From positions 30,972-94,971 of the forward strand of contig CAVSWS010000020.1 in NCBI GenBank assembly GCA_963731765.1: a stretch of DNA of 64,000 nt, in the 5' to 3' direction. The first letter of the stretch is position 1; each line of letters begins with the position of its first letter. Under the pieces are notes generated by a model, which was not told where the DNA came from, did no database searches, and saw only the letters and a list, made by a program, of their open reading frames with translations. Made by a program: the position numbers and the translations under genes. The stretch is from an uncultured Chloroflexia bacterium (GTDB lineage Bacteria > Chloroflexota > Dehalococcoidia > DSTF01 > WHTK01). This document shows positions 9,479 to 62,734 of the stretch, in pieces.

Positions 9479-10096
9479 CTATTCCGTCGCGCCCCGACGC
9501 CGCTTCTCCGTGGCAATGATCCTCGCGACCTCGCTGGCGGCTTCTTCGAGCCTGCCCGTCTCGTTAAGGACGGTGTAGTCGAAGTCTTTGGCGGCTTCGA
9601 GCTCGGAGGAGGCGACTTCTGTGCGGTGCTGCTGCTGTGCCTCCGTGTCGAGGTCACGGTCTCGCATGCGGCGCACCGTCTCTTCGACGCTGCCGGGGGA
9701 GATGAAGATGAGCACGGCGTCCGGGAAGAGGCGCTTCAGCGTGGCAGCACCCTGCACGTCGACGCGGGCGATGACGTCGAGCCCGAAGCCCAGCGGGTCC
9801 TCAATCTCGATGCGAGGGACGCCGTAGCTGTACTCGTAGACGGTGGCGTGCTCAACGAAGCCGCCTGTCGCCAGGATTGTCTCGAACTCCGGCGCGCTGA
9901 TGAAGTGGTAGTCCTGTCCGTCCACCTCGCCGGGTCGCACCGGCCGTGTCGTCACCGTGACCACCTTGTGCATCGTGGGATACCAGGTGCGCAGGATGTC
10001 GCAGATCGAGTCCTTGCCGGCGCCGGAAGGGCCGGAGAGCACGATAAGCAGGGCCGGCTCACGCGGCAGCAGCGGCACTTCGACGTTATTCTGCAA
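9479..10096 (-). CDS. gmk: guanylate kinase
   Basis: P-loop 'LSGPSGAGKDS' and GMP-binding 'YEYSYGVP'. 205 aa. Confidence 0.9.
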   Translation of the reverse strand: MQNNVEVPLLPREPALLIVLSGPSGAGKDSICDILRTWYPTMHKVVTVTTRPVRPGEVDGQDYHFISAPEFETILATGGFVEHATVYEYSYGVPRIEIEDPLGFGLDVIARVDVQGAATLKRLFPDAVLIFISPGSVEETVRRMRDRDLDTEAQQQHRTEVASSELEAAKDFDYTVLNETGRLEEAASEVARIIATEKRRRGATE

Positions 10097-11380
10097 GCAA
10101 TTCGTCTCCCCGTAGCTCGCGACCCGTGGCCGCGTCCAGCACCCTTGCGCCGAGTCCGTTCGGCGGTGTTTCCACCAGCTTAGCGAAGAAGTTCGGGAAG
10201 GTCTTCGCCACGCAGTTGGGCTCCCGGATGCGCATGCCCGGTACTTTCAGTCCGAGGGTCGCAAAGCACATGGCGATGCGGTGGTCGTCGTACGTGTCGA
10301 TGTCGGCGCCATGCAGCGCGGACGGCTCGATCGGTCAGCGTGTCGCCGTCTTCCGTGACCGTTGCGCCGCACTTCGTCAGCTCCGTGCGCAGGGCATAGA
10401 CGCGCTCCGATTCCTGCACGCGCAGCCGGCCGAGGTCGGTGAAGCGCGAGGTCTTCGGGAGCAGGGGTGCGACCGTGATTGCGGTCATGATCGCGTCGCC
10501 GAGGTCGTGAAGACGCGACGTGTCCGTGTACTGGGCCTTCGGGTCTGAGAAGCGTCGCAGGTAGTCGACAAAGCGGGCGTCGATTTGCCAGTCAGACTCC
10601 GGCCAATCGTTCACCTGTAGGTGCGTCCATGGCAAGAGGGCTCCCGCCGCCAGGAAGTAGCTGGCGCTGGAAGCGTCCGGCTCGATGGTGTACTCGCCGC
10701 CGTGCTGCGGGAATGCCTCGATGAGCTTCGTGGTCATCGCGACGTAAGCCGATTCGTCTGCGTCCTCACCGGTGACGGTGACCTGCCAGCCGCCGTGCCT
10801 TGCCGAGAGCAGCAAGCGCAGACGCGAACTGGGAGCTCTCCTCGATGCTCACGCTGCAGGACCGCGACATCGAGCCGGTTTCACCGGAGAGCGTGGCGGG
10901 CAGATGCCCTCCTTCCGCCTCGATCCGGTAGCCGAGCTGTCGCAAGGCGTCGAACAGGGCAGCCTGGGGCCGCTGGTGCATGCGAGCCGTGCCGTGAACG
11001 CGATAGCTGCCGTTGCCTAGGCAAAGCATCGCAGTCAGAAAGCGCGCCGCCGTCCCCGCGTTGCCCACGTAGATCTCGAGCGGTTGGGACGCTGTTCCGG
11101 CGCGTGGTATCTCACCTGCGAGACCGGTGACGGCAATGGTGCAGTTGCCGGCCTCCGCTGCGTCCGGTTCCACGCTGACATCGAAGCCCAGCGTGCGCAG
11201 CGCCTCGACCATGATTTCGGTGTCTTCGCTCCACAGGGCGCCGTGCAGCGTGGTGCGACCGTCCGCCAGGGCAGCGAGGATCAGCGCCCGGTTCGTGATG
11301 CTTTTGGAGCCGGGGATGGTGACGCGCACGGGACCGCTGGGAGCGGGCGGCACGATTTCGATGACGTCAGGAAGCGCCAT
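10086..11380 (-). pseudogene. aroA: 3-phosphoshikimate 1-carboxyvinyltransferase (EPSP synthase) interrupted by two +/-1 frameshifts
   Basis: Three consecutive ORFs in different frames (11380-10766, 10815-10180, 10271-10086) together give a full-length AroA (N-terminal 'KSITNRALILAALA', middle 'DASSASYFLAAGAL', C-terminal 'YDDHRIAMCFATLGL'). Frame changes lie near 10800 and 10330. Confidence 0.8.
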
Positions 11381-11595
11381 GGCGCAAGCTTACCGCACCC
11401 GCCTGCGGGCCGGATGGGACCTCTTGGGCCGGAGCTTGGCCGGGGCGACCGGAGATATTGAAGCCGGTTCAAAGTGCGGAGATGAAATTGCGCTTCTGAA
11501 TACTTGAATCCGTCTTCGGTTGACGGGCGGTTGGACGATCTGTAGCTTCCGCCGATACTTTCCCGCTAATTGTTACCTGAACCAGAGGAGGTCTC

Positions 11596-12324
11596 TTGAA
11601 AAATCGGATTCTGTCCACCGCGAGGATTGCGGGCATCCTGTATCTCATCGTGGCGGTCTGCGGCGGATTTGCGGAGTTAGTCCGCACCAGCGTCCACGAC
11701 AACGGTGACGCGGCGGCGACTGCGCAGAACATACTGGACTCGCAGTTCCTCTTCCGCCTGGGCTTCTCGAGCGACATCGTCGCGTTCTCCGCTGAGGTGG
11801 CGCTGGCGTTCGTGTTCTACGCCTTGCTGAAGCCCGTGAACGATGGTTTGGCGTTGCTGGCGGCATTCTTCCGGCTGGGTCAGGCTGTCGCGCTGGCGAT
11901 CAACCTCCTGAATCAGTTCATCCCGATCATGCTGCTGAGCGCGCCGGAGCACTTTGCTGCCCTGGAGACGGATCAGGTCCACGCGTTGGTACTGATGTTC
12001 ATGGAGGCGCAAAGCTACGGTTACCTGATCGGCCTGGTGTTCTTCGGGCTCAGCACGGCCGTCCTGGGCTACCTCGTGCTCAAATCGGGTTACTTCCCGA
12101 AGGTGCTGGGCCTGCTCCTGATGGTGGTGGTGCCACTCGGCTACCTGCTCGATAGCTTCACGTCGTTCCTCATCGAGGACAAGCCGGAGACGATGACCCT
12201 TGTCCTGGTCACGCCTGCGGCGCTGATCGAGCTCGCTTTCATCGGGTGGTTGCTGGTGAAGGGCGCGGACAATCTGGGGCAGGATTCCATCGCCGGCGCG
12301 GGCGCGAAGGTTGGTGCGTCATGA
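11596..12324 (+). CDS. DUF4386 domain-containing membrane protein
   Basis: Polytopic membrane protein; N-terminus 'ARIAGILYLIVAVCGGFAE' is typical of DUF4386. SD GGAGG before the TTG start. Confidence 0.6.
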   Translation: MKNRILSTARIAGILYLIVAVCGGFAELVRTSVHDNGDAAATAQNILDSQFLFRLGFSSDIVAFSAEVALAFVFYALLKPVNDGLALLAAFFRLGQAVALAINLLNQFIPIMLLSAPEHFAALETDQVHALVLMFMEAQSYGYLIGLVFFGLSTAVLGYLVLKSGYFPKVLGLLLMVVVPLGYLLDSFTSFLIEDKPETMTLVLVTPAALIELAFIGWLLVKGADNLGQDSIAGAGAKVGAS

Positions 12325-13298: not shown

Positions 13299-13301
13299 CG
13301 G

Positions 13302-14405: not shown

Positions 14406-14897
14406 TCAGCTCGCGTCGTCGGCGGCCCAGAGCAGTCGGGCGAGGTGAGCTTCGTCCTCTGTATGAGTGCCACCGACGAGACGGACTGTGAGGTCACTGC
14501 AGCCGGCCTCCTGTACCAGACGGGCTGAGATCGTGACGTGGTGGTGCAGTCGATAGGCGGCACCTCGCCAGCCGGGCGCGTCTGCCTTGCCGGTCAGCCT
14601 GCCGACGTGTGGCGCTGCGACGTGCAGCACTCGCAGCCAGACTGATACGGAACCTTTGCCGCAGTCGTGCAGGAGGGCGGCAACCAGCACATCGCGATCG
14701 TCTATCTCGGCTCGCAGGCGGCGCATGACTTCGAGGGCGTGTCGCTGGTCACGACGCTCCATCGCCTCGAACAGCGCTCGCTCTTCCGGCGACATGATGC
14801 CGTTGGCGTACACGAGGTCGTCCTCGGGGATACGAGGCCACAGTGCGTGTACCACCTGCCGGGTGCGGTAGAGGGCTCTAGATGATGCTATGGCCAT
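14406..14897 (-). CDS. HD domain phosphohydrolase
   Basis: 'LLHDCGKG' HD motif with upstream histidines. 163 aa. Confidence 0.6.
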   Translation of the reverse strand: MAIASSRALYRTRQVVHALWPRIPEDDLVYANGIMSPEERALFEAMERRDQRHALEVMRRLRAEIDDRDVLVAALLHDCGKGSVSVWLRVLHVAAPHVGRLTGKADAPGWRGAAYRLHHHVTISARLVQEAGCSDLTVRLVGGTHTEDEAHLARLLWAADDAS

Positions 14898-15594
14898 CTA
14901 TGATCTTCGACAGACCGTTGATGATGGGTGAGAGAATTTCGTGCAGGATGCTGATGTTGCCGGATGACACGAGCGGCAGCAGAAGCAGCAGCATGAGGAC
15001 CAACGGGCCGTAACGCTCCAGCCGGGCGACAGAGATCGAGAGATCGCGCGGCAGGATGCCGATGGCTACCGCGAAGCCGTCCAGGGGCGATAGCGGCAGA
15101 AGGTTGAACACGGCCAGTACGAGGTTGAAGAAGATCATCGCGCCGAGGAACAGGGAGATGTACTCGTTGGCTCCCCACTGGTCCAGGCTGAACGGCCGCG
15201 TCAGCGGGTTCCACCAGTTGACGAGGCCGAGCTGAATCGGCAGACCCGCGAGGGCGGCGAGAATGATGTTGGAAATGGGCCCCGCCGCTGCCACCATTGC
15301 CCGACCGGTCTGGGGACCGTTGCGCAATCGCATTGGGTTGACCGGTACCGGCTTGCCCCAGCCGAAGCCGGCCAGGACCATGAACATGCTGCCGGCGGGA
15401 TCGAGGTGTCGCGCCGGGCTCAGGCTGACGCGGCCCATCATGCGCGCGGTGTGGTCGCCGAGACGATCGGCGACGAACGCGTGGCTGAACTCGTGGAAGG
15501 TGACCCCGGCGATGAGCGCTACGACGGCGGAACCGAAGAACAGGATGAACATCGGGATGCTATCGGACAGCAGGCTGGAATAGGTGATGAGCAA
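14878..15594 (-). CDS. site-2 protease family (peptidase M50) membrane metalloprotease
   Basis: 'HEFSHA' zinc-binding motif in a TM helix and 'LLPLSPLDG' (LDG motif). Polytopic. Confidence 0.8.
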   Translation of the reverse strand: MLITYSSLLSDSIPMFILFFGSAVVALIAGVTFHEFSHAFVADRLGDHTARMMGRVSLSPARHLDPAGSMFMVLAGFGWGKPVPVNPMRLRNGPQTGRAMVAAAGPISNIILAALAGLPIQLGLVNWWNPLTRPFSLDQWGANEYISLFLGAMIFFNLVLAVFNLLPLSPLDGFAVAIGILPRDLSISVARLERYGPLVLMLLLLLPLVSSGNISILHEILSPIINGLSKIIDGHSII

Positions 15595-16697: not shown

Positions 16698-16827
16698 GCA
16701 CCTCTGACTGCCGTCAGAAACTTCCGGAAAATTTCGCGCGAAACCTGTCCTTTTGACGTTCCTCGCGTTCGTCTATCATCGAATGCAGGTACGGGCCTGC
16801 ACGTAGACGAAAGGACGCAACCTCCTG

Positions 16828-17175
16828 ATGAAGTACATGCTCATGTTGTTCCACGAAGAGCAGCCCATGGACATGACTCCCGAAGCGATGGCGCCATGGA
16901 TCCAGTTCGGCGAGGACTCTGCCAAGATCGCCACGCAGGTCGAGGGCGAGGCGCTTCACCCCTCCAGCACTGCAACGGTCGTTAGCGTGCGCGACGGCAA
17001 GACGATTACGACCGACGGCCCCTTCTCCGACACGAAGGAGCAGCTCGGCGGCTACTACGTCTTCGACTGCGAGAACCTCGACGCCGCGATCAAGCTGGCT
17101 TCGATGATCCCCTGGGCGCCGACCGGCCACGTCGAAGTGCGTCCTGTCATCGACTTCGGCGACAGCATGGGTTAA
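16828..17175 (+). CDS. YciI-like (YCII-related) protein
   Basis: 'DGPFSDTKEQLGGYYVFDCENLDAAIKLA' is the YCII signature. It sits directly upstream of an ECF sigma gene. Confidence 0.75.
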   Translation: MKYMLMLFHEEQPMDMTPEAMAPWIQFGEDSAKIATQVEGEALHPSSTATVVSVRDGKTITTDGPFSDTKEQLGGYYVFDCENLDAAIKLASMIPWAPTGHVEVRPVIDFGDSMG

Positions 17176-17183
17176 GCGCTACT

Positions 17184-18491
17184 GTGCAGCGAGCGAACTC
17201 CTCACGGAGTACGGGCGCTCCACCGCGCGAAGGCGATTCTACGCCGCGCGCGGTGGAGGCCGTCGCTGCCGAACACGGTACCCGCATCATCGCTACCCTG
17301 ATCGGCGCCTGCGGCGGTGATTTCCAGCTGGCGGAGGACGCCTTCCAGGAGGCGTTGATCGAGGCCCTGGAACATTGGCCCCGAGACGGTGTGCCCCGGC
17401 AACCAGACGCCTGGGTGATCACCACGGCGCGTCGCAAGGCGATCGACCACCTGCGCCGTGGGCAGAACCTGGCACGCAAGCAAGAGCAGCTGCGCTCGTT
17501 GCTGCTGCAGGAGCAGGTGGCGCCGGCGGCCGACTCAGAAACGGCGGAGGAGCATGTGTTGCAAGACGACCGCCTGCGCCTGATATTCACCTGCTGCCAC
17601 CCGGCGCTGGCACTCGAATCGCAGGTCGCCCTCACTCTGCACACCGTCGCCGGCCTCGCGACGCCGGAGATCGCCCGCGGCTTCCTCGTCAGCGCCGATA
17701 CGATGGCGAAGCGCCTGACCCGGGCGCGGGGCAAGATCCGCGACGCCCGAATCCCCTATGAGGTGCCCGAGGAGCACGCTTTGCCCGATCGACTGGCCGG
17801 GGTGCTCTCAGTGGTCTATCTCATTTTCAACGAGGGCTACGTCGGCTCCTCCGGCGACACGCTGATGCGCGTCGAGTTGTGCGACGAGGCGATTCGTCTC
17901 GGCCGGCTGCTGGCGTCCCTGATGCCGGACGAACCGGAGGTGCTGGCGCTGCTGGCGCTCATGCTCCTGATCGACTCCCGGCGCGAGGCGCGAACTGACC
18001 CGGCGGGCGACATGCTAACGCTGGAAGAGCAGGACCGTACAAAGTGGGACCGTCAGCGAATCGATGAGGGGACGGTGCTCGTCCAGCGCGCGATGCGAAT
18101 GCGCCGGCCGGGACCCTATCAATTGCAGGCCGCCATCGCCGCCCTCCACGCCGAACCGCTGAGTCCCGAGGATACCGATTGGGCCCAGATCGCGGCCCTG
18201 TACAACCAGCTGCTTCGTCTCCAGTCGACTCCCGTTGTTGCACTGAACCGCGCTGCCGCCGTCGCCATGGCGTTCGGACCGCGTGCGGGGCTCAGCCTCA
18301 TCGAGGCGGTGGAGAAGGACGGGGCTCTGGACGGCTACTATCTGCTGCATGCGGCCAAGGCTGACCTCCTGCGTCGCGACGGCAGCCGTGCAGATGCGGC
18401 CGATGCCTACCGTCGGGCGCTCAAGCTGTGCACGAATCCGGTTGAGCAGCGCTACTTGCAGCGGCGTCTGGGCGAGGTAACGGTACAGTGA
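17184..18491 (+). CDS. RNA polymerase sigma-70 family ECF sigma factor with long C-terminal (DUF6596-type) extension
   Basis: Sigma-70 region 2 'LAEDAFQEALIEALEHWPRDGVPRQPDAWVITTARRKAIDHLRR' and region 4 'ALTLHTVAGLATPEIARGFLVSADTMAKRLTRARGKI'. The true start is probably the internal GTG near 17262. Confidence 0.8.
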   Translation: MQRANSSRSTGAPPREGDSTPRAVEAVAAEHGTRIIATLIGACGGDFQLAEDAFQEALIEALEHWPRDGVPRQPDAWVITTARRKAIDHLRRGQNLARKQEQLRSLLLQEQVAPAADSETAEEHVLQDDRLRLIFTCCHPALALESQVALTLHTVAGLATPEIARGFLVSADTMAKRLTRARGKIRDARIPYEVPEEHALPDRLAGVLSVVYLIFNEGYVGSSGDTLMRVELCDEAIRLGRLLASLMPDEPEVLALLALMLLIDSRREARTDPAGDMLTLEEQDRTKWDRQRIDEGTVLVQRAMRMRRPGPYQLQAAIAALHAEPLSPEDTDWAQIAALYNQLLRLQSTPVVALNRAAAVAMAFGPRAGLSLIEAVEKDGALDGYYLLHAAKADLLRRDGSRADAADAYRRALKLCTNPVEQRYLQRRLGEVTVQ

Positions 18492-20708: not shown

Positions 20709-22853
<2,145 letters not shown>

Positions 22854-22863
22854 GTGTTGGCCT

Positions 22864-24634
22864 TCAAGCTCCAGAACGTACTATCGCTACGGCATCGGAT
22901 GGCAGGCGCAGGGTCGCGCCCTCAAGGGTCGTGGTGTCATCGCTGGTCAGCACGAGCGACGGCGTATCGCTGAGTTCGACTTGCAGCGTATTCGGTGAGA
23001 GATTCAGTGCCAGGGTCAGGGCGCCTCGGGTCATCTTGAGCCAGCCGGCGCTCTCGTCGAACGCGACGCTCACGTTATTCAGGTCGCCGTCTCGTAGCTC
23101 CGAGGAGGCGCGTCGCAGGGCGATGAGGTCGCGATACCAGGCCAGCATATCGGCGTGAGGCGACTGCGTCACCTCGTCCCAATCGAGGCGGGAGCGCTCG
23201 AACGTGGCGATGTCCTGGGGGTCCGGCACCTGCGAGGGCTCCCACCCGAAGGCGGCGAACTCGCGACGGCGCCCTTCGCTCACGGCTCGGCCCAGGGCGG
23301 GGTCTTCGTGCGCCGTGAAGTACTGGAACGGCGATGAAGCGGCCCACTCCTCGCCCTGGAACAGCAGAGGTACGCCCGGCGCCATCAGCAGCACCGCCGC
23401 GGCGATTTTGGCGCGTTGCAGTCCCACCAGGTGCACGAGGCGCTCTCCGACGGCCCGATTGCCCACCTGGTCATGGTTCTGGGCGGCGATGACGAATCGG
23501 CCGGCGGGCACCTCACCGACCGGCCGGCCGTGCGTGCGATGGCGATGCGGCGAGTAGCGGCCGTCGTAGACGTAGATGTGCTGCAGCGCCTCGGCGAGAT
23601 GCCAGATGTCGCCGAAGTCGGCGTAGTAACCGGCGGTTTCGCCCGTAAGCAGGGCGTGGAGGGCATGGTGGAAGTCGTCGCTCCAGACGCCGCCGAGGCC
23701 GTAGCCGCCGCGCTCCCAGCCTTTGACCAGCTTCGGATCGTTGAGGTCGCTCTCGGCGATCAGGTCATATCGGCGTCCGGTCTGATACTCCAACGCTCGC
23801 TTCTGAATTTCGAGGTTTTCGAGAATATGCCACGCCGACTGATCGAGGATGGCGTGCACCGCGTCGAGACGCAGGCCGTCGAAGCGATAGTCCCGTAGCC
23901 ACATGAGGGCGTTTTCGATGACCCAGCGCCGCACTTCATCTGCGTAGTCCTGGTCGTAGTTCAGTGCTTTGCCCCATGGCGTGTGGTAGCGCTCCGTGAA
24001 GTACGGCCCAAAGCGCTCCGTGTAGTTCCCCGCCGGACCGAGGTGGTTGTAGACGACATCGAGCAGCACGCGCAGGCCGCGGCCGTGGCAGGCGTCCACG
24101 AAGCGCTTGAGGGCGTCCGGGCCGCCGTAGGCCGTATGCGGCGCATACAGGTCTACGCCGTCGTAGCCCCAGCCGCGGTTGCCGGAGAACTGGGCCACCG
24201 GCATGACTTCGACGTGCGTGACTCCGAGCTCGACGAGGTGGTCGAGCCTTTCGATGGCGCTGTCGAGTGTGCCGCCGGGGGTGAAGGTGCCGGGGTGCAT
24301 CTCGTAGATCACGGCGTCTGCCAGCGCAACGTTCGGCCAGCTGTCGTGCTGCCACCGGAACGCCGCATGGTCAACGGTGCGTGAGGGGCCATCGACGCCC
24401 TGGGGCTGCATCGGCGAGCGCGGGTCCGGGAACGGCCCCTCGCCATCGACGTAGAAGGCGTAATCTGCGCCATCAGCAGTTCGAGGCCCCGCGGTTCGCC
24501 CCGGGGTGCAACTCAACCTCCGGGACCTCCGTGCTCCACCAACCGTCATCGTTGCGCGTCATCGGTCGTCGTCGGCCGGCGACGAGGACTTCGACCTTTT
24601 CGACCAGGGGTGCCCAGACTCGGAACTCGCTCAT
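22864..24634 (-). CDS. treZ: malto-oligosyltrehalose trehalohydrolase, with an apparent single-base frameshift near the 5' end
   Basis: The N-terminal E-set segment 'MSEFRVWAPLVEKVEVLVAGRRRPMTRNDDGWWSTEV' (ORF 24739-24473) is out of frame with the 561-aa GH13 body ('GADYAFYVDG...DVVYNHLGP'). The frame change lies around 24476-24559 (cccc/gggg runs). The ATG overlaps the treY stop (ATGA). Confidence 0.8.
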
Positions 24635-31061: not shown

Positions 31062-31342
31062 TTGGTCTGCCTCCGTCTTGCTGCGTGTGGCTGGATTGTG
31101 CCCCCGCGCAGTAGGGCCGTCAACCGTATTCACTGATTCGATAGACTCATGCGCTCATGGGAGGAACGCCGGCGTCTCAACGGCGCGGCGAGTGGAATCC
31201 TCGCAAAAATTGGCGTGACAGGGTGGCTGACAACCAAGAACGCATGTGCTATAACCGTTGTGGAGGACGCGGCGGTCGTAATCCAGGCGGGGCTCGACCG
31301 CGGCCTCCTCCGCCAAATACCACAACTGCACGAGGCGATCGT

Positions 31343-32125
31343 TTGAGCACGGAACTGGAGTCCGTCGCGGAGTTTCTCACCGGTAACCGCATGGCAGCGC
31401 TTTCGCTGCCGTGGCAGTTGTTACGCAGCGAGGACGTGCGCGTGCTGCGAGACTGGGCAGGTGAGACGCTGCCTTTTCCCCAGCAACGCCGGCTCATGCG
31501 CGACCTGCGTCAGATGCTGCGCCAGCCCGGGGAAGCAGAGGACGAGCAGCTCCTGCGCAGCGATGTGACGCCGGCGCTGTTGCGAGCGCTCCGGCGCAGC
31601 GGCGGCGCCTCAAGGCTGGCGTCTCGGCAGGCCAGGCTGCTGTTGGATGCTTGCGAGACAGACGAATCGATAGAAGGATGCCGAGACGCTGCCGTCATCG
31701 GCCTCATGCTCAGCGCGGGCCTGCGACGCCAGGAGGTCGTTGGTCTGCAACGGGGCGATTATGAGGACGAGGACGGACGCATCAAGGTTGCATCGCGACG
31801 GGGGCTAGCCCGCAGCGTCATTCTGGAGGGCCGGACGCGCGCGACAGTCGCAGGGTGGCTGAGACTGCGCGGCGCCTGGTCCGGCCCCCTCATCGCGGCG
31901 CTAAGCACGCACGGCGAGGTGCAGATGCGCGGCCTCACGCCTTCGGCGATCAACCGTTTGCTGGCCAAGCGCTCCGACCAGGCCGGATGCGCAGGCATTA
32001 CGCCTCGCGATCTGCGAGGTCGCTTCCTGCGCGAACTGCAGTCGGCGTCGAGGGAGCGTCCCCGCGGCCGCTACTATCAGGACGAGAACGGCCAGCCTGC
32101 CTGGGTCTTGGCCCCGGCGGGCTGA
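31343..32125 (+). CDS. tyrosine recombinase (phage integrase)-like protein, degenerate catalytic motifs
   Basis: C-terminal integrase catalytic-domain pattern 'RDAAVIGLMLSAGLRRQEVVGLQRGDY...ITPRDLRGRF...RGRYY', but the box II histidines are replaced (HDLRHT becomes RDLRGR). Start uncertain: TTG 31343 or ATG 31391. The Gly/Arg-rich ORF-track N-terminus is unlikely to be coding. Confidence 0.5.
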   Translation: MSTELESVAEFLTGNRMAALSLPWQLLRSEDVRVLRDWAGETLPFPQQRRLMRDLRQMLRQPGEAEDEQLLRSDVTPALLRALRRSGGASRLASRQARLLLDACETDESIEGCRDAAVIGLMLSAGLRRQEVVGLQRGDYEDEDGRIKVASRRGLARSVILEGRTRATVAGWLRLRGAWSGPLIAALSTHGEVQMRGLTPSAINRLLAKRSDQAGCAGITPRDLRGRFLRELQSASRERPRGRYYQDENGQPAWVLAPAG

Positions 32126-32184
32126 AGCCGCTATCGTTAGGGCACTACCCCGTACAGGATCAGCGCCACTTGGCGGCACCAGAC

Positions 32185-32427
32185 ATGGCAAAGCGAAACG
32201 GACAGCAGCTAGAGCGCAGCGGCTTCGACCTCACGGCGTCCAGCCGTGTTTGCGACCGGTGCGAAATGACCTTCGCCGAGGGCTACACATGGCCGGCGCT
32301 CGGCATCCCGCTCGTGCTGTGTAAGGACTGCACGGAGGACCTCGAAGCCTCGGTCGAGAGCTACGGCGAGAGCCCGGAACGCAGCAAGATGCGTCTGATG
32401 GACCGCCTGCGCAGCATCGGCGTCTGA
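32185..32427 (+). CDS. small zinc-ribbon protein (80 aa)
   Basis: 'CDRCE...CKDC' four-Cys zinc-ribbon pattern, immediately downstream of the integrase-like gene. Confidence 0.3.
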   Translation: MAKRNGQQLERSGFDLTASSRVCDRCEMTFAEGYTWPALGIPLVLCKDCTEDLEASVESYGESPERSKMRLMDRLRSIGV

Positions 32428-32440
32428 GCCACCCGAACCC

Positions 32441-39538: not shown

Positions 39539-39740
39539 TGTCTTACTCCTTCTGCTGAGACCCTTCGACTGGTGAATGGTCTCTACAAGCACGTCGAATG
39601 AACGAAGGCAGGAATCGACAAGGGTGGCAGAGTTTAACGGGAGCCTCGGGATTCTTTAGCGAATCCGCCGAATCTGGCGACGCTCGCGCTTATAATCGCG
39701 ACCGGAGCAATCGAAGCACGTTCGGATTAGAGGAGACCCC

Positions 39741-45213: not shown

Positions 45214-45579
45214 ATGGCCTACGACGAGCAGGTGGCAGACCGAGTGCGACAGGCTATCTCCAATCACGGCGGTCTCAGCGAGCGCCGGATGTTTGGCGGC
45301 CTCTGCCTCATGGTCAACGGCAACATGTTCGCGGGCATCCGTGACGACGAGCTCATGCTGCGGGTTGGGCCGGAGCGCTTCGAAGCATTGCTCGCAAAGC
45401 CCGGTGCACGGCCGATGGACTTTACGGGCCGTCCCATGCACGGCTACCTCTACGTTGCGGCCACGGCCTTCGAGCGTGACAAAGACCTCTCGACCTGGCT
45501 CGAGGCCGCGTTGGGCTTCGTCGAGTCGCTGCCGCCGAAGCAGCCCGGCGCGAAGACGTCGAAGCGCAAGAAGGCCTAG
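45214..45579 (+). CDS. TfoX/Sxy N-terminal domain family protein
   Basis: 'RMFGGLCLMVNGNMFAGIRDDELMLRV' matches the TfoX_N pattern. ATG at 45214 with GGAGG 6 nt upstream. Confidence 0.65.
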   Translation: MAYDEQVADRVRQAISNHGGLSERRMFGGLCLMVNGNMFAGIRDDELMLRVGPERFEALLAKPGARPMDFTGRPMHGYLYVAATAFERDKDLSTWLEAALGFVESLPPKQPGAKTSKRKKA

Positions 45580-46416
45580 CGCTCAGGCGTCAGCGCGATG
45601 TCGAAGACGGCCTCCAGGCTCCCGTCGTCCCGCTTCTGGAACTCAAGAATCAAGGAGTCACGCACGCCAAACACCGCGTCCGACTTCAGGTACTGCGACT
45701 CGCTGTCGAAAAAGTGCGTCGTCACGGGGTAGAAGCCGGGAGCGCTGACAATGAAGTGGGTGTGCGCCGGTCGCATCGAGGTACGCCCCGTCGCTTCGAG
45801 CAGGCTGCCGACCGGGCCGTCGGTTGGCACAGAGTAGTCGAGGGGGCGCGTGGTAATGAAGCTGTAGCGGCCGTCGGCGTCCGTGGTAAAGATGCCCCGC
45901 ATGTTCATCGGGTCCTGCGCGGGATCCTGCATGGGGTAGAAGCCGTTGGCGGCGTTCTGCCAGATATCGACCTGCGCACCGGCGACAGGCTTGCCAGCCT
46001 CGTCAGTTACCCGGCCGCTGAACGTGCAGGATGGGCGCATCTCCCGTCTCGGTGATAACGATGGAGTCGCCGTTTTCGCGGTGCGCCGAGCCGTCGACGT
46101 GGAAGGGGCCGAGCACGGTCTGCTCCGTCGCCGCCGCCGTGCCGTTGTAGTCGAGCATCTCGACCAGGCTCGAGAGTCCGAGCACGTCCGATAGCAGGAT
46201 CACCTCCTGCCGCGAGTCGTCCGACATCTGGCCGCACGCGGTGAGGAACTGGACGCCCGCTTCCCACTCCTGGTGCGTCAGGTTCACCTCGGACGCGAAG
46301 GCGTGCAGATGCCGCACCAGCGCCCCGACAATCTCCTTCAGTCGTGGATTTTCGATGTTTGCGAAGGTCGCCAGGACGTTGTCGAGCAGGGCCTGCTCGG
46401 AGGTAGTGGTAGACAT
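45576..46416 (-). pseudogene. intradiol ring-cleavage dioxygenase (catechol/hydroxyquinol 1,2-dioxygenase-like) split by a frameshift
   Basis: N-terminal domain ORF 46416-46003 (Dioxygenase_N-like 'RLKEIVGALVRHLHAFASEVNLTHQEWEAGVQFL') and catalytic-domain ORF 46040-45576 ('SGRVTDEAGKPVAGAQVDIWQ...RPAHTHF') are in different frames. They join near 46020-46040. Confidence 0.7.
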
Positions 46417-46545
46417 CGGTTGTGCCTCCTCGGTAGGGCAATTTGTGCGCCTAAGCTAGCACAAGCGAGTGTTGGTTCGCCCGCATCGTGCGATACCCAA
46501 CGTAACTGAGGTGTCCTCACGCCGACTACGACTGTGGAGAACCGA

Positions 46546-49948: not shown

Positions 49949-50020
49949 TTGGAGGCGGGCTGAGGAGATGGTTGCCGGGCAGGGCGTCCTTTTCAATCTC
50001 ACTGCTTCGCTGCGACGAGC

Positions 50021-51058
50021 CTAACCCAGGATGCTGGCCATGGCGGCGTAGCGGATGGGGTCGATCTGCTGGAGCTGCTGCGGGTTGCTTTCGTAGAGGC
50101 CACAGCTGATGCCGAAGTCCTCGATGGCGTTGTGGGCGCCGGGCTCGATGGCCCACTGGCCGGTGGCGGGCCAGGCGGTCGTGACCTGCGCGGTCCACGC
50201 CTGGCCTTCACTGGTTGCCAGCCATTCGTGCAGGTCGTAAGGCATCGCAGGCGCCACGCCCAGCTCGCTCTCGATCATGAGGTGCTGATGCGCGTGGCAG
50301 GCTTCGTGCTGCAGCGTCCATGCCGACTGGTTGGGATAGACAACGGCGGTGCTGGTTGGCGCCCAGTAGAAGTTCGCGGGCGTCGCACCAAACGGGCAGA
50401 TGCCGTTAGCCAAACAGCCAACCAACGAGACCTGTACAGAGTAGCCGGCGGGAAGGGACATCCCTGTCGCCTGCGCGACTTCGATTTGCTCCTGCGCGGG
50501 CGTGGCGGCCAGGGCTGCGGCGGGTGCCTGCTGTACCGGCGGAGCAGCCGCCTCTGCAGCTTCCTGTACTGGCGTGGCAACCGCAGCAGTCGCCTCGACG
50601 TCCTGCTGGATGGGCGTCGCGGTTGGCGCGGGCGTCGCCGCTTCCTCTTGAGCTGGAGTGGCTACCGCGGCGGACACTTCAGCCACCTGAGTGGCGGTTG
50701 CCGTCGGCTGGACTGCGGAGGCCCCATTGTCCATCTCCGGACTGGATGCGCCGAAGTCCGGCACGAACGCGACGACGGCCACCGGTGTCGCCAAGTGGGC
50801 TTCACGACTGGGTACGGCGTCTGTCGACACTGCGATAACGCCAATTGCCAGGGCGCTGACTGCAAGCCCGGAGACAATCGCCGCGAGAAGCCGCCGGTCT
50901 GCAAGCCGGGAGCGGCGCCCAGAGGAGGGCGAAGTTGGCAGGGAAGAATTGGCTGCAGGGGTCTGTCGGGTGCGCGCAGATGTGCGGAAAAGGGAGATCA
51001 TCGAAGAAACCGCCTTTTGTGTCGGCGGTTTCACCTCTGGCCGTCCCGGTTGGAACAC
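50021..51058 (-). CDS. hypothetical membrane-anchored protein with Ala/Thr/Pro/Gln-rich tandem-repeat linker and C-terminal HExxH-like domain
   Basis: TM segment, imperfect repeats (VATPAQEEAATPAPTATPIQQD...), and C-terminal 'LQHEACHAHQH'. The real start is perhaps the internal M (MISLF...). Confidence 0.5.
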   Translation of the reverse strand: MFQPGRPEVKPPTQKAVSSMISLFRTSARTRQTPAANSSLPTSPSSGRRSRLADRRLLAAIVSGLAVSALAIGVIAVSTDAVPSREAHLATPVAVVAFVPDFGASSPEMDNGASAVQPTATATQVAEVSAAVATPAQEEAATPAPTATPIQQDVEATAAVATPVQEAAEAAAPPVQQAPAAALAATPAQEQIEVAQATGMSLPAGYSVQVSLVGCLANGICPFGATPANFYWAPTSTAVVYPNQSAWTLQHEACHAHQHLMIESELGVAPAMPYDLHEWLATSEGQAWTAQVTTAWPATGQWAIEPGAHNAIEDFGISCGLYESNPQQLQQIDPIRYAAMASILG

Positions 51059-51370
51059 TTCGAGGCATTGGTGACCACATCGGGCGCCAGTTTCCTGGTG
51101 AGCCCAGCCTCGAAGTACAGCCCGACTATTTAGTTATCTACACATAAGAACGCAGGCTCTGCCCCGGCGTTGCACGATGCCGGGCATGCGCGGTGATTGG
51201 GCGAAGCGAGAGTCTTGCGATGTCGCCGTGAGCCGCATGCAATCCCGGAGCGTCGTGGGCGGGCTCCAGATTTTCGGGCTGGAGCCGATTTCGTAGCACT
51301 GGAGTGTCGGTGCGTTTGACACGGGCGTTCGTGGACGATACGTTTAAGCCCCCGCCACTGGAGAAGTGGC

Positions 51371-58036: not shown

Positions 58037-58190
58037 ATGCTCAGCAGAAGACTGTCGTTGCGAGGCCCGACCTCAGGAGGGCCGTGGCAATCCTTCAGCG
58101 CTCCTTGCCTCTCAATGCTCCGGGTAAACGCAGTGATGGCGCCTTTCAAACCCTTGCTCCATACCTACTACAAATTGGACTATCTGGAGC

Positions 58191-58439
58191 GTGCCTTACT
58201 ACGTCTACATCCTTACCAACTTCACGAACAACGTGCTCTACACAGGTGTCACGAGCGATCTATGCCGCCGAACCTGGGAGCATCGCGAGAAGCTGGTCGA
58301 GGGCTTTACGAAGCGATACAACGTCTGGAAGCTGGTGTACTTCGAGGACACTGAGGATGCTTTGTCGGCGATAGCTCGAGAGAAGCAGATAAAGGCGGGG
58401 CCGAGGACGGACGGAGAGCGTGCGATCTCGCGATTGTAG
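58191..58439 (+). CDS. GIY-YIG nuclease family protein (COG2827-like)
   Basis: 'YYVYILTNFTNNVLYTGVTSDLCRRTWEHR' is the canonical GIY-YIG core. Confidence 0.8.
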   Translation: MPYYVYILTNFTNNVLYTGVTSDLCRRTWEHREKLVEGFTKRYNVWKLVYFEDTEDALSAIAREKQIKAGPRTDGERAISRL

Positions 58440-58633
58440 AGCTCGCGAGACTCCACTGATGGTCGAGATCCTACTTGGACCCGCATCCTGTGGAGGCTCG
58501 GAGGGCTGACAGGTTGCTACGGCCGCTCCTGGGCGGACCTGTTTCTGGCAAGCGTCATAGGACTCGAAAGTGCCACGCCTCGGAGTCGCTGCAACGATAC
58601 CAAGGAACTCAACACCAATCACTCACACACACA

Positions 58634-58675: not shown

Positions 58676-58749
<74 letters not shown>

Positions 58750-58756
58750 GGATATT

Positions 58757-58840
58757 GGTGCCGAGGAGGGGATTTGAACCCCTACGCCCGAAGGCACGGC
58801 CCCCTCAAGACCGCGTGTCTACCGATTCCACCACCTCGGC
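58757..58840 (-). tRNA. tRNA-Leu (anticodon GAG)
   Basis: Reverse complement GCCGAGGTGGTGGAATCGGTAGACACGCGGTCTTGAGGGGGCCG...GGGTTCAAATCCCCTCCTCGGCACCA. Long variable arm; anticodon loop TTGAGGG. Confidence 0.85.
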
Positions 58841-58933: not shown

Positions 58934-59584
58934 TCACCTGGGCGGCAGTATCGGCCGGTCCGCCGGGTGGAATAGCTGTGCCGGTCCGACACCGTCGCAG
59001 GGCAGGCCGAGGTGCGTGATGCCCGTGTCGTCCAGGAGCAGCGAGTAGCCGCCCGAGAGGATGATCAGGTATCGCAACGGCAGGGGCGACGCGAGACGGC
59101 CCTGCTGCACTTCGACGACGGCGTAGATGCCCTGCGACGCGACGTCCTGCTCGAACTGCGTCACCTGCGTCACGAGGCTGGCGCGGTCGCGGGCGAGGAA
59201 GGAGACGTCGCAGCCGCCCGCCGCGATGACGTCGACGGCAGAGCCCTCGGGGACGCCGGGCGGGCACGGGTTCGTGCCCTGGGTGCCCGACGGCGCGTTA
59301 TCGCATCGATAAGGGTGGAAGCTGAGCTGCGCGATCACCGCCTGCGGGTCGCCGCTCAGGACCGCCTCAATGGCCTTGTCGATGACGTCGATGCCGGTGC
59401 GGGTGTCGGGCGGGTAGGTGTTGACCGGCGTCGCGCTGGGCTGGGGCGCCCGGGTGGGGAACGGCGGCAGGGTCGGCGCCGCCGGTGCGGTGGCGGTCGG
59501 CGTCGATGACTCCCCGTTGCCTCCGCTGCACGCTGCCAGGAGCAGCGCGGGCAGGAGTAGCACGAGGAGCCATCGCTGCTTCAC
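58934..59584 (-). CDS. hypothetical lipoprotein
   Basis: Signal peptide plus lipobox 'LLAACSGG' and a Pro/Thr-rich linker. 216 aa. Confidence 0.5.
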   Translation of the reverse strand: MKQRWLLVLLLPALLLAACSGGNGESSTPTATAPAAPTLPPFPTRAPQPSATPVNTYPPDTRTGIDVIDKAIEAVLSGDPQAVIAQLSFHPYRCDNAPSGTQGTNPCPPGVPEGSAVDVIAAGGCDVSFLARDRASLVTQVTQFEQDVASQGIYAVVEVQQGRLASPLPLRYLIILSGGYSLLLDDTGITHLGLPCDGVGPAQLFHPADRPILPPR

Positions 59585-59604
59585 CGCGACATAATAGCGG
59601 CCGG

Positions 59605-60435
59605 CTAGCCTATGGGCGAGTCGGGGAAGTAGGCGTTGCAGGCCGCGATGCCGTTGTCGTAGCTCGAGTTGAACGCTTCGACGCGCTCGGCCGTGGTGCC
59701 GTGGTCGCGGGTGCGGCTCTCGCGCGAACCGATGAACTCCATCAGCGTCTCGATGTCGCCCAGGTCGTCATCGGTCTCGAGCCAGCCCTGGCCGTTGGCG
59801 TACTGGGCCCAGGCGCCGGAGACGCAGTCGGCCTGGTTCTCGAAGGCGATCTCGCTGGCCTGCGATCGGCCGTACTGCACGCCGAGGTTCGCCTGCAGGT
59901 GGTGGCCCCATTCGTGCGCCAGCGCGACGGCGGGCGCGGCGTCACCGGCCTGGTGGTAGAAGGCCCAGATCAGGTCCTGGCCGATGTAGATCGTCTGGTC
60001 GCCGGTGCAGTACTCGTAGGCCTCGCTGTCGGAGACGCCGCAGTAGGTGCGGGCGGCGCGACCGTCCGGGATGTAGACCACGTGCGGGTCGGCGAGGTCC
60101 GGGTAGGCCGTCTCGAAGTACTGCTGCACCATCGGGATGATGTCGGAGAGGTACTGGTCCATCTCGTTGAAGGTGAAGCAGCCCTCCAGGGAGCCGCCGC
60201 ACTTGTCGTTCGACACGGTCTGGGCCGGCACCGAGGTCGCGGTCGGCTCCGGCGTGGCCGTCGCGGTCGCCACGGCCGTGTTCGATGCCGTCGAAGGCGC
60301 GCCGGTCTCAGACGCCGGCACCGTCTCAGCGGCGCTCTGGGCATCGCCGGCATCGTCGCCGCCACCGAGCACCGCGCTGCCGCACGCCGCGGTCAGGCCG
60401 ACCGTCGTCAGGAGCGCCAGGGCAAACAGCTTCAT
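59605..60435 (-). CDS. lipoprotein, putative neutral zinc metallopeptidase (YpfJ/Zn_peptidase_2-like)
   Basis: Lipobox 'LTAACGS' and 'ALAHEWGHHLQ' (HExxH) motif. Start taken at the internal M (MKLFALALL). Confidence 0.7.
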   Translation of the reverse strand: MKLFALALLTTVGLTAACGSAVLGGGDDAGDAQSAAETVPASETGAPSTASNTAVATATATPEPTATSVPAQTVSNDKCGGSLEGCFTFNEMDQYLSDIIPMVQQYFETAYPDLADPHVVYIPDGRAARTYCGVSDSEAYEYCTGDQTIYIGQDLIWAFYHQAGDAAPAVALAHEWGHHLQANLGVQYGRSQASEIAFENQADCVSGAWAQYANGQGWLETDDDLGDIETLMEFIGSRESRTRDHGTTAERVEAFNSSYDNGIAACNAYFPDSPIG

Positions 60436-60479
60436 GTGTCCCACCTTCCTCATCTTCATCCCACCGATAGATCGAGGGT

Positions 60480-61990
60480 CTCATGCGGGGACGAGGGAGG
60501 TGCTAGGCAGGGCCTAAGCAAGTGTTATTTAGCTGTGAACGTTGGTTGGTGAGCTCTAGCATATGTGACAGGCTTGGGCTCGCCCACAACTCACCTCGGC
60601 ATCAGGCAGCGACTCAAATCAACGGTGGCCGGTGGCCAGGCTCTATCACCTGCACGTCTTTCCTTTGTTTTGGCAGGCCCCCAGCCAATGTTGGTCCTCC
60701 CATTAGGGTCAGTGCTTTATCCGGCTCAGGCGGCCTGTATTGGCTACAGCTGTCGCCAAGCATCGGTGAAATGCGCAGCTTCAAGAATCGCATTCGGCGA
60801 GGCATCATCAAAACGGGAGCAACCGCAGCACGGATTCGATGACGTGATTTTGATTCTATTGAATCAGTATTGAACGCAAGTGGCGCCGAAAATCTGTCTC
60901 TACTCTCCCTTTTCCATAAATGGAATCGTCGTAGAAGATAACGCGCATTCCTGCCACATCGAAGGGCAGATGCTGACTTCGTCTGGCAAGAAGAATAATC
61001 GGCTTGCCCATAGCGAATGCATAGCCGAGTTCGAAGTACACATTGGGATTGGGAGGAGTGATTTCTGCAACAATAACGCTGGCATCGTGAAGGTTCCGAA
61101 CAATGTCTTGGATAATAAATCCCGGTCCGGGAATTTCGTCTGCCCTAAGGAGTGAAAGGCCTTCGCTGGCCGCTATGGGTTGGAGTACGTCGCGGTATAA
61201 GGCTGTGAATGTTTCGTCAAAGCCATCGCGACGAACCCCGTTGGATTTACCGACTCAACTCTAAAGTCCTCGAACGTTACTGAACCGTGGCCTTGTGCCA
61301 TAACTCCAACTTGGGCGCCTGAAAATGATACCGCGGTCTGATATTCAAGCAGCTCTACGCCATCAACATATAGCCTGATTCGTTGCCCTCTGGTGATAAC
61401 CTTCAATTCGTATCGATGATCAAATCAAGATTCATTGCTGCACCTTCGGCCCGAAGATTAAGCCACCCCCTGATGCAGACCAAGATGAAACGCTGGCTAA
61501 ACTGGCCGAACCTCCGAGGCCGACTGATAAGAACCAGCGAAGAGCCAGATTCCAAGAGACCACGATGTGGGCCATCGCTTCCATCGCTGTGGGACAGTAG
61601 ATTGACCCTCCTCGGCGGAAGTCTCAATGAACTGAGAAGTCTGTCCCAATTGAGGCAAGGCTCCGGATGGTGACAGGGTCACAGCATGGTAATCTCGCCG
61701 TCTTTAAGAACAGCGTTAGTAAGAGCTAGAGCAAAGTTTGAGAGATCACCTGGAAAGACAAGCTTGTCGTCTCCTGGCTCCCAGGGGCCATAGATGCGCG
61801 TCCAGTTCGCAGGAACAGTCTACAGCCTACGCCTGCCCTAGTCAGCGTCCAGCTCGCGCGCCTACCCTTTGACCACTGCTCACGGTTCTGACGAGTCACG
61901 TAACGTCCATTCCCAATGCGACCATGAAAGCGACTCGGCCTTGTGCTTAGTTAGGGTATTGACAAGGTGCTGCCGAGCCTAGTAGCTACT
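60480..61990. other. low-GC (~42-50%) island with decayed gene fragments
   Basis: Base composition falls sharply relative to the ~68% GC flanks. The minus strand carries several protein-like fragments in different frames separated by stops. Confidence 0.6.
60856..61254 (-). pseudogene. remnant of a nucleoside 2-deoxyribosyltransferase-like / TIR-like domain protein (no start codon, N-terminus lost)
   Basis: The frame open between stops translates to '...ALYRDVLQPIAASEGLSLLRADEIPGPGFIIQDIVRNLHDASVIVAEITPPNPNVYFELGYAFAMGKPIILLARRSQHLPFDVAGMRVIFYDD...'. This carries the [FY]-E-[LI]-G-Y-A-x-A-x-GKP-[IV] NDT-like/TIR-like motif. An upstream ConA/LamG-like fragment ('RIRLYVDGVELLEYQ...GHGSVTFEDFRVE') lies in another frame. 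Confidence 0.5.
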
Positions 61991-62007
61991 GGCTAATGCA
62001 ATCAATG

Positions 62008-62039
62008 AAGAGGGGCGGTTCAACGAACCGCCCCTTCTT
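62008..62039 (-). terminator. rho-independent terminator of the ffh-rpsP-KH operon
   Basis: aagaggggcggttc-aacg-aaccgccccttctt followed on the minus strand by a U-rich tract (uucauugauug), 40 nt after the KH gene stop. Confidence 0.55.
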
Positions 62040-62077
62040 GGTGCTTACTGACTTGTGGCTTGAGCTTCGAGGCGCGC

Positions 62078-62308
62078 TCAGTCGCCGATGTCGAGGACGG
62101 CGCGGGTGTCTTCGCGGGCGGAGGCGACCTTCAGGAGGGCGCGGGTGGCCTCGGCGACGCGTCCGCCGCGGCCGATGACCTTGCCCATGTCGCCGTCAGC
62201 CACGTCCAGGTGCAGGACGTGACGGTGGCCGTCCCAGTCGTCCGTAACGACGACCTCGTCCGGGTTCTCCACCAGGGCGCGAGCTATGTACTCGACTAGC
62301 TCTTTCAT
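62078..62308 (-). CDS. KH domain RNA-binding protein (YlqC/UPF0109 family)
   Basis: 'LVEYIARALVENPDEVVVTDD...VADGDMGKVIGRGGRVAEATRALL' has the KH GxxG motif. It lies downstream of rpsP, as in the conserved operon. Confidence 0.8.
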   Translation of the reverse strand: MKELVEYIARALVENPDEVVVTDDWDGHRHVLHLDVADGDMGKVIGRGGRVAEATRALLKVASAREDTRAVLDIGD

Positions 62309-62734
62309 GCCTCTTCGGTGGTCTCTTCTGTCGGAGCTTCGGCCGCGGGCTCTTCAGCCGCAGCCGGTTCTTCCGCAGCCGGGGCTTCAGCGGCCGGTGC
62401 CTCTGCGACGGCGGTCGCGTGCGGGAGCAGCTGCAGCAGCCGGGCGGGCAGCCTGGGGCTCTTCCTTCGCCTTCGGGGGCGGGAAGACCAGCGGCTCCAT
62501 GATGCCGACGGTCGCGAACAGCTTGTGCATGCGCTCGGTCGGCTGGGCGCCCTTGGACAGCCAGGCGCGTGCCTTCTCCTCGTCGATGACGAAGGTGTTG
62601 GGCTCCGTGCGCGGGTTGTACTGGCCGATGATCTCGACGTACTTGCCGTCGCGCGGTGCGCGGGCGTCCGCGACAACTACTCGGTAGGTCGGCTGCTTCT
62701 TCTTGCCGACTCGTGCGAGCCTGATTTTTAGCAA
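62305..62734 (-). CDS. rpsP: 30S ribosomal protein S16 with Ala/Glu/Pro-rich C-terminal tail (one apparent frameshift inside the tail region)
   Basis: 'MLKIRLARVGKKKQPTYRVVVADARAPRDGKYVEIIGQYNP' is S16. The ORF-track frame stops at 62387, but a second frame continues as 'AEAPAAEAPAAEEPAAAEEPAAEAPTEETTEEA' to a stop at 62305 that overlaps the KH gene start (ATGA), so the true gene most likely ends at 62305. Confidence 0.8.

Follow-up and report, generated by a model that had tools for sequence, protein, structure and literature searches.

Frame breaks in conserved genes of a Dehalococcoidia-like metagenome contig are probably for the most part small assembly errors, with one aroA insertion found in two strains

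Our question was whether a cluster of small frame changes in conserved genes of a metagenome contig reflects errors in the assembly or genes that are broken in the organism. The window, by which we mean the whole stretch of 64,000 nucleotides that was analyzed, is best explained as part of a Dehalococcoidia-like metagenome-assembled contig. The original prediction had listed five breaks in it, two in aroA and one each in treZ, an intradiol dioxygenase gene and rpsP. Family profiles, tblastn and alignment to sister assemblies found all five, each where it had been placed or a few bases from there. The profile and tblastn coordinates are contiguous across every break, and the gene halves match contiguous parts of the profile or homologue in adjacent frames, with other disabling changes absent. 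The lesions are 1- or 2-base indels, and they lie in 1-to-2-base runs or in non-repetitive sequence. Four of them (the second in aroA and those in treZ, the dioxygenase gene and rpsP) are private to the window and occur in none of the other assemblies examined, and for these the proposed origin as indel errors is supported. It is not supported for the first aroA site, which is also present in a second assembly. We put the probability that most of the breaks are small consensus indel errors in the assembly, with this aroA site set apart, at roughly 0.7. The description of the affected genes as normally essential does not apply to treZ and the dioxygenase, both of which are non-essential.

The comparison set consisted of two other assemblies of the same species, contig_8899 (ERZ25039495) and contig_21378, which cover nearly the full window at 98.8-99.4% nucleotide identity. 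Breaks were mapped with family profiles and with tblastn using intact relatives, and alignment to these two contigs was used to pin them at the level of single bases. Substitutions between the window and its sisters are synonymous by about 5:1, and the sisters can thus be taken as real strains under purifying selection. The divergence between contig_8899 and the window is 0.6%, and the two represent different strains from separate assemblies. In a three-way comparison over 20.6 kb there are 55 private substitutions in the window, 61 in contig_8899 (L090) and 191 in L001; the branches leading to the window and to contig_8899 are equal in length in two compared stretches (55 vs 61 and 56 vs 59). 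The public record of the window's contig, 185,611 bp long, carries truncated products identical to those of the window (P0241, P0363, P0365, P0367 and P0368). An exact-protein look-up of the window's TreY, its N-terminal aroA fragment and P0241 gave no match in the indexed contigs, an index that does not include the window's own contig. Additionally, a scan of GTDB genomes with TreZ returned relatives of 59% identity or less only, with no representative genome of the species among them.

The aroA gene, encoding EPSP synthase, occupies 10086-11380 on the minus strand and is spread over three frames (11380-10816, 10815-10332 and 10330-10086). The NCBIfam model TIGR01356 is matched at positions 2-164, 216-354 and 377-409 in three different minus-strand frames, and tblastn with the intact 430-aa protein P0001 aligns residues 1-189 (11380-10814), 189-348 (10815-10336) and 350-430 (10331-10089) in frames -1, -2 and -3. 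Taking out two bases gives a 430-aa protein that is 99% identical to P0001. An intact 430-aa aroA is found in contig_21378, and all the other relatives, at 69-90% identity, have a full-length gene of about 430 aa. The second site is an extra A at 10331 on the minus strand (ACCG[A]TCGAG), and no other indel in the 20.6 kb compared is private to the window.

The first site is an extra T at 10814-10815 on the minus strand (coding strand GCGC[T]TGCTGCTC). It is common to the window and contig_8899, and is missing from contig_21378 and from every relative of 85-90% identity. A TTG arises at the junction and serves as the gene caller's start for a 242-aa second ORF in contig_8899, whose aroA call is split into 204 + 242 aa. 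The context of 90 nt on either side is identical in the window and contig_8899, and contig_21378 has the same context without the insertion; this distribution fits the tree of the three strains. Because the T recurs in a separate assembly, and a third strain has the same context without it, both a random and a purely context-driven error are argued against. Rather than a random assembly error, the site would be a true mutation that was inherited or an error that the platform makes systematically. An exact-pattern scan of JGI metagenome contigs with both alleles of the site gave no match, and the collections contain no short-read evidence for the lineage.

In treZ, encoding malto-oligosyltrehalose trehalohydrolase (22864-24634, minus strand), the reading frame changes after the first ~50 codons. 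The model TIGR02402 is matched at positions 2-40 and 38-544 in the two frames, and tblastn with P0242 aligns residues 1-50 in frame -1 and 42-588 in frame -2, with an overlap at 24504-24479. The lesion (24478-24483, minus strand) is a 2-bp deletion between 24478 and 24479 together with adjacent substitutions. Read on the plus strand it is AGCA--GTTCGAGG in the window vs AGCAGCGTCTGAGG in both relatives, and it is private to the window. Only the 515-aa truncated TreZ is called in the public record (P0241, 100% identical), and contig_8899 has an intact treZ of 590 aa. In contig_21378 the gene has 6-7 private breaks, at other positions than that of the window. The adjoining treY is intact, with 0-1 nonsynonymous differences.

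The intradiol (catechol/hydroxyquinol-type) dioxygenase gene, at 45576-46416 on the minus strand, is in two frames. When the intact 279-aa protein of contig_8899 (P0121) is used in tblastn, residues 1-132 align in frame -2 and residues 128-279 in frame -3, which places the junction at 46034-46021. The lesion is an extra T at 46021-46022 on the minus strand (CACGT[T]CAGCGG) and is private to the window; at this site both contig_8899 and contig_21378 read HVSGRV in frame. The dioxygenase of contig_21378 is broken elsewhere.

For rpsP, encoding S16, the frame-corrected gene extends over 62305-62734 on the minus strand, and as written it ends at 62387 and gives 115 aa. The tail is shifted by an extra A at 62420 on the minus strand (CCCGC[A]CGCGACC), private to the window, and with this A taken out the tail agrees with that of contig_8899 at nearly every residue. 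The stop then becomes TGA at 62307-62305 and restores an ATGA overlap with the start of the KH-domain (KhpA-like) gene at 62078-62308 on the minus strand, just as had been proposed. S16 of contig_8899 has 142 aa and the ATGA overlap, the relatives' S16 proteins are 142-153 aa long with stop and KH start overlapping as ATGA in four of five, and the KH protein is identical in six public contigs. However, the argument that a broken rpsP would not be viable was overstated. The S16 model is whole (1-78 of 78), and the shift is confined to a length-variable, low-complexity tail rich in Ala, Pro and Glu.

One more frame change is possible near the 5' end of a tyrosine-recombinase (integrase) gene on the plus strand (31149/31157-32125), where at 31220-31223 the window has GGG and both relatives have GGGG. 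This G-run is within the annotated first ~24 codons, and the change from G4 to G3 could be a sixth window-private frame change if that stretch is coding, which is uncertain. Overlapping pairs of high-GC3 ORFs at 4837-7229, 16807-18488, 31145-32732, 49964-51133 and 58937-60480 were also considered as extra frameshifts and rejected, as Pfam and the relatives' gene calls make them separate genes or non-coding. The tRNAs and neighbouring genes are intact in the window. At 60.5-62.0 kb there is a low-GC island with fragmentary genes.

The sister assemblies have private breaks of their own where the window is intact, which is what assembly noise predicts. The gene for a GlgX-like debranching enzyme (20709-22853, minus strand) was used as a control. 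Both the window and contig_8899 have it intact; in contig_21378 a C is added opposite window position 21022, and the C-terminus is Arg-rich nonsense. A second control, the PNPOx-family gene at 39011-39539 on the minus strand, is unbroken in the window; in contig_8899 a C is added opposite position 39207, and the C-terminus is again nonsense. Frameshifts at 21022 and 39207 in the window were rejected, since these lesions belong to the sister assemblies. In total contig_21378 has >20 private breaks where the window reads as a sensible protein, affecting the GlgX-like gene, the tyrA N-terminus, treZ, GGT, folK (9 in ~350 bp), folP (3) and the dioxygenase. Another contig, contig_54558, is broken in the S16 tail and has a split permease gene and a split acyl-CoA dehydrogenase gene.

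Differences between the strains at codon positions 1:2:3 are 30:24:161 and 11:5:110 in two comparisons, and codon differences summed over 57 genes amount to 364 synonymous and 72 nonsynonymous. Genome decay, which would have favored real pseudogenes, was looked for in the broken genes, and the count of 57 synonymous to 15 nonsynonymous differences, with the regions past the breaks included, gives no sign of it; selection is no weaker there. Indels between strains are mostly intergenic (9 of 11 and 7 of 10 in two comparisons), and this enrichment indicates that most of them are natural and not noise. The indels are not spread uniformly over coding and non-coding sequence, and only the coding excess of the window fits a uniform component. 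When private indels are polarized, those of contig_8899 divide into 1 coding and 6 intergenic, against 4-5 coding and 4 intergenic in the window, a contrast (5:4 vs 1:6) that is not statistically significant alone. The sequence is ~85% coding, so the excess in the window is located as expected from a uniform error process. The counts of breaks per lineage are 2, 6 and >20 at divergences that are comparable or known, which variable assembly quality fits and biology does not.

If most of the breaks are assembly errors, the contig consensus would have a low density of small indel errors. One private 1-2 bp indel each would account for the breaks at the second aroA site and in treZ, the dioxygenase and the rpsP tail, perhaps also for that at the integrase 5' end, and the underlying genes would be intact and functional in the organism. 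The likely cause would be noisy long reads whose consensus or polishing was imperfect, at a coverage that may have been modest or strain-mixed. Such errors would add indels uniformly along the contig, over the natural indels that selection would confine to intergenic DNA. The contig names (contig_NNNNN) are Flye-style, and a similar series of MAGs in ENA was built from Nanopore reads only, with Flye and one round of Medaka, and with residual indel errors acknowledged (PMC12313526). That the present assemblies are linked to the Nanopore MFD-LR project we infer solely from this naming; the ERZ accessions are not mentioned in the papers and supplements searched. The window resembles long-read-only assemblies of this kind in the 1-2 bp size of its indels, in gene halves that keep homology in neighbouring frames, in lesions that are mostly private while the sister assemblies have different ones, and in a density of ~1 per 10 kb. 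However, its indels are outside long homopolymers, and the first aroA site recurs in a second assembly.

Homopolymer runs are the classic error signature of Nanopore and 454 sequencing. A homopolymer-type error was rejected because the sites have no long homopolymer, with only the change at 31220 falling within a G4 run, and this counts against assembly error. A common sequence motif at the lesions was considered and dropped. The description of all lesions as +1 insertions with scrambled flanks was also abandoned, as the nearer relative shows a simple added A at the second aroA site and a 2-bp deletion in treZ. Two hits in one gene, as in aroA, are what a real pseudogene would show, and a genuine null or truncating allele could be tolerated in each of treZ, the dioxygenase and the S16 tail; these points also weigh against assembly error.

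The most serious alternative, which we regard as plausible but somewhat short of an even chance, is that aroA is truly frameshifted in the lineage of the window and contig_8899. The first site would be inherited and the second a natural second hit in a disused gene, and the other breaks may be assembly errors. The lineage would then be an aromatic amino-acid auxotroph or have a second EPSP synthase elsewhere. In favor of this are the same inserted T in two assemblies of 0.6% divergence, in agreement with the tree, the uninterrupted but otherwise same flanks of contig_21378, by which context alone is insufficient, and a second lesion in the same 1.3-kb gene. The private aroA changes of contig_8899 (3 synonymous, 4 nonsynonymous) also point this way. 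However, since the split of the two strains aroA has gained 7 synonymous and about 6 nonsynonymous changes (3 events if the clustered codons 354-360 are counted as one), against the ~16 nonsynonymous predicted under neutral decay at the synonymous rate observed; this result is intermediate and underpowered. The gene aroA is without substitution-derived premature stops and without larger deletions, and the gene is full-length in all other relatives. Additionally, the adjoining tyrA is intact and strictly constrained, with 0 nonsynonymous differences, so the aromatic pathway looks maintained.

It is improbable that all the frameshifts are real, in a strain that is gaining null alleles in aroA, treZ, the dioxygenase and the S16 tail through early decay or relaxed selection. 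The public record does have truncated products exactly like those of the window, treZ and the dioxygenase are broken in contig_21378 too, the low-GC island would suit such a history, and some of the affected genes are dispensable. Against this, purifying selection is efficient in these genomes, each break other than the first aroA site counts as a singleton, and the equally diverged contig_8899 has just one private coding break. The apparent lesions of contig_21378 include those in folK and folP, which are essential genes, and this is a pattern of noise; the intact tRNAs and neighbouring genes of the window also speak against decay. Genuine frameshift pseudogenes in decaying or host-restricted genomes are similar in that conserved genes are interrupted, and here aroA has two lesions with one common to two strains. 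They differ in that the genes of the window are without relaxed selection, substitution stops or deletions, their pathway neighbours are intact and the lesions are mostly singletons.

Less likely again, and in our view very doubtful, is an EPSP synthase that would work as two separately translated pieces, one of residues 1-188 with a 16-residue tail and the other a TTG-initiated 189-430, with the first site real and inherited and the second an assembly error. This would account for the constraint on both halves and on tyrA in two strains. According to the account given in PMC3097199, engineered AroA fragments complement experimentally (Sun et al. 2006, FEBS Lett 580:1521), and the two ORFs of contig_8899, with a TTG at their junction, span the whole enzyme. 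However, aroA is split inside the conserved SSQFASALLL motif and not at a chosen loop, translation of the second ORF is only predicted, no ribosome-binding site is present 5' of the TTG and the window has a further break. Programmed recoding, by which +1/-1 ribosomal frameshifting or transcriptional slippage would bypass the breaks, can be dismissed as extremely improbable: the first aroA site would need a +1 shift at a P-site CUU with a G after it, a Leu codon that is also the slipping codon of prfB, but it has no in-frame stop and no Shine-Dalgarno-like stimulator at the 3-nt spacing, the sites together have no common slippery motif, A-site stop, rare codon, correctly spaced stimulator or homopolymer run, and homologues are single-frame at every distance, so the shifts are not conserved.

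Gene calls in the window's contig and in its sister assemblies are not safe at face value, and it would be unsafe to read this MAG as aroA-negative and auxotrophic or as S16-truncated. The three assemblies can be used for mutual correction. Only the aroA T common to two strains may be of biological interest. If it is false, it documents a reproducible, non-homopolymer consensus error, which long-read-only comparisons would take for shared ancestry. If it is true, the strains would belong to a soil lineage of Dehalococcoidia whose EPSP synthase is broken or split.

All five frame breaks of the original prediction, and their coordinates, were borne out by profile searches, tblastn and alignment to relatives. 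NCBIfam profiles divide cleanly between frames for aroA (TIGR01356 positions 2-164, 216-354 and 377-409 in three frames), treZ (TIGR02402 positions 2-40 and 38-544 in two) and the dioxygenase (catechol-dioxygenase models, positions 6-112 and 128-280 in two), and when full-length homologues are searched against the window by tblastn the query coordinates are contiguous across the frame changes. Removing two bases from aroA, the EPSP synthase gene on the minus strand, gives a 430-aa protein identical at 424 of 430 residues to an intact public protein. The lesions are an extra T at 10814/15 (aroA site 1), an extra A at 10331 (aroA site 2), a 2-bp deletion with adjacent substitutions at 24478/79 (treZ), an extra T at 46021/22 (dioxygenase) and an extra A at 62420 (rpsP tail). 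Site 1 is common to the window and contig_8899, a sister-strain assembly; the others are found in the window only, and no long homopolymer lies at any coding lesion of the window. Coding indels at 21022 (GlgX-like) and 39207 (PNPOx) were rejected as window lesions, since there the window encodes sensible protein and the sister Arg-rich nonsense. The window has a GC content of 64%, a strong GC3 signal and most of its genes on the minus strand, and the best-named relatives of its proteins come from Dehalococcoidia MAGs. Its truncated products occur in identical form in the public protein collection (TreZ, 515 aa; S16, 115 aa; AroA N-fragment, 204 aa; dioxygenase fragments, 137 and 154 aa), each on one 185,611-bp NCBI/ENA contig, thus the deposited record includes the frameshifts.

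The view that the broken rpsP would not be viable was overstated. The S16 model is complete in the window (1-78 of 78), and the shift is confined to a low-complexity tail. In this clade S16 has an Ala/Pro/Glu-rich C-terminal tail of about 65 residues (window 62305-62480; L002-L006, homologous public segments), whose length and repeat content vary between relatives; their proteins have 142-153 aa, with the stop overlapping the KH start as ATGA in 4 of 5. In contig_54558, from another sample of the species, the tail differs by insertions of 9, 11 and 14 nt that together alter the frame. The usual ffh-rpsP-KH cluster (62078-62734 and downstream) is not followed by rimM and trmD; in the window and in its relatives a variable island and a Zn-peptidase gene lie 3' of KH instead. 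This 1.5-kb island (60500-62010; GC 56% versus 64%) has a different content in each of the three strains. In contig_54558 it has a Ser/Thr kinase gene, in contig_8899 an ORF of 169 aa and in the window minus-strand fragments only; the 87%-identical L002 has next to nothing there. At 60859-61254 a nucleoside 2-deoxyribosyltransferase/TIR-like fragment matches Pfam at E 3.5e-7 (profile 45-103 of 117), and at 61176-61424 lies a weak DUF1080-like C-terminus. The two appear mutually frame-disrupted, and the island is either an insertion that has decayed or a strain-specific segment of low coverage and many errors.

Exact-protein look-ups found two other assemblies of the species, ERZ25039495 (contig_8899; loci L090, L089, L007 and L003), spanning window 766-64000 at 99.2-99.4% identity, and ERZ25039483 (contig_21378 and contig_54558; L001, L088 and L004), with contig_21378 97.3-98.8% identical. 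Most coding mismatches in the pairwise comparisons are at third codon positions (161 of 215 and 110 of 126), and codon differences over 57 genes number 364 synonymous to 72 nonsynonymous. The assemblies represent genuine strains on which purifying selection acts, and not noisy versions of a single sequence. By their private substitutions the strains group as ((window, contig_8899), contig_21378). Genes differ widely in synonymous divergence from contig_21378 (24 per 239 codons in the M50 peptidase-like gene at 14878-15594 versus 0-2 per 300 in several neighbours), a pattern suggestive of inter-strain recombination tracts. Patches of moderately high divergence (3.6-5.6% versus 2.1% of codons) contain the frameshifted genes. 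Against contig_21378 the DUF4012 gene has a compensating pair of 1-bp indels 3 nt apart (9360-9364), jointly equivalent to a small replacement of several bases that keeps the frame. The alignments to the two sister strains are interrupted at 58084-58600, a strain-variable slot adjoining tRNA-Cys and tRNA-Leu(GAG) (58676-58840), where the DinB-family gene differs between the relatives (179 aa versus 210 aa). A tyrosine-recombinase (phage-integrase family) gene at 31149-32125, between a GGT-containing block and folK/folP, is kept in all three strains. The N-terminus as annotated is rich in Arg, Gly and Pro and is perhaps not truly coding; at the integrase 5' end a window-only change of GGGG to GGG (31220) falls in a stretch of doubtful coding status.

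Indels between the strains are mostly intergenic (7 of 10 and 9 of 11 in the pairwise comparisons). Most are thus natural, and the presence of an indel alone is not evidence of error. On equal branch lengths the private indels of contig_8899 are 1 coding and 6 intergenic, and those of the window 4-5 coding and 4 intergenic. This contrast is explained by natural indels biased to intergenic DNA together with errors spread uniformly at about 4-5 per 64 kb. Four of the five breaks are absent from the other assemblies, and for these window-private breaks the predicted assembly error is the best explanation; we put the probability of consensus errors at about 0.7. Site 1, which recurs in contig_8899, does not fit this claim. 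The broken genes, downstream of the breaks included, have 57 synonymous to 15 nonsynonymous changes, the same signature as intact genes, and tyrA, adjoining aroA, and treY, adjoining treZ, are intact. Wholesale genome decay is unlikely, as selection is efficient and the breaks are mostly singletons (4 of 5). Programmed frameshifting is excluded in practice, given that homologues at all distances are single-frame and that no slippery or stimulatory elements were found at the sites.

Every assembly of the species carries its own set of breaks: PNPOx in contig_8899; a shifted S16 tail, a split permease and a split acyl-CoA dehydrogenase in contig_54558; and in contig_21378 GlgX-like, the tyrA N-terminus, treZ (6-7), GGT, folK (9 in ~350 bp), folP (3) and, at another residue than in the window, the dioxygenase. 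Nine indels in folK, an essential and otherwise recognisable folate gene, are noise, and show that patchy consensus errors occur in this assembly series. The patches of dense single-base indels and high divergence in contig_21378 (L088 5599-7378 and 14900-16100; window 23400-23850 and 32590-33740) are in treZ, folK and folP. With 519 private substitutions of weak codon bias (269:99:90), this assembly resembles a mosaic or a noisy consensus, and its gene calls in those patches cannot be relied on. By coordinate extrapolation, both window-matching contigs of ERZ25039483 stop at the dioxygenase locus (window ~45800-46500), so that this assembly breaks at a gene that has one frameshift in the window and a different one in contig_21378. 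A comparable ENA series was Nanopore-only with one Medaka polish, and its authors inspected it for Nanopore-associated errors (PMC12313526); the contigs here have Flye-style names and may belong to a project of this kind.

With the site 1 insertion, aroA in contig_8899 is called as ORFs of 204 and 242 aa; the second ORF starts at a TTG that the extra T creates and reaches the normal C-terminus. The sharing is consistent with the strain tree, and contig_21378 lacks the T despite identical sequence for ~90 nt on each side, thus a purely context-driven artefact is not the obvious answer. The site is about equally likely to be a true inherited mutation or a systematic error of the platform. A gene long dead in this lineage would be expected to show roughly 16 nonsynonymous changes under neutral decay. 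In aroA, however, the nucleotide changes since the window/contig_8899 split number 7 synonymous and about 6 nonsynonymous (3 events if the cluster at codons 354-360 is counted once), and there are no substitution-derived stops. There is a small possibility of a functional two-piece enzyme, as AroA fragment complementation has been shown in engineering work, as cited in PMC3097199. In contrast, the split here falls inside the conserved SSQFASALLL motif, with no ribosome-binding site before the TTG. As biology, the frame breaks are most likely not a real feature.
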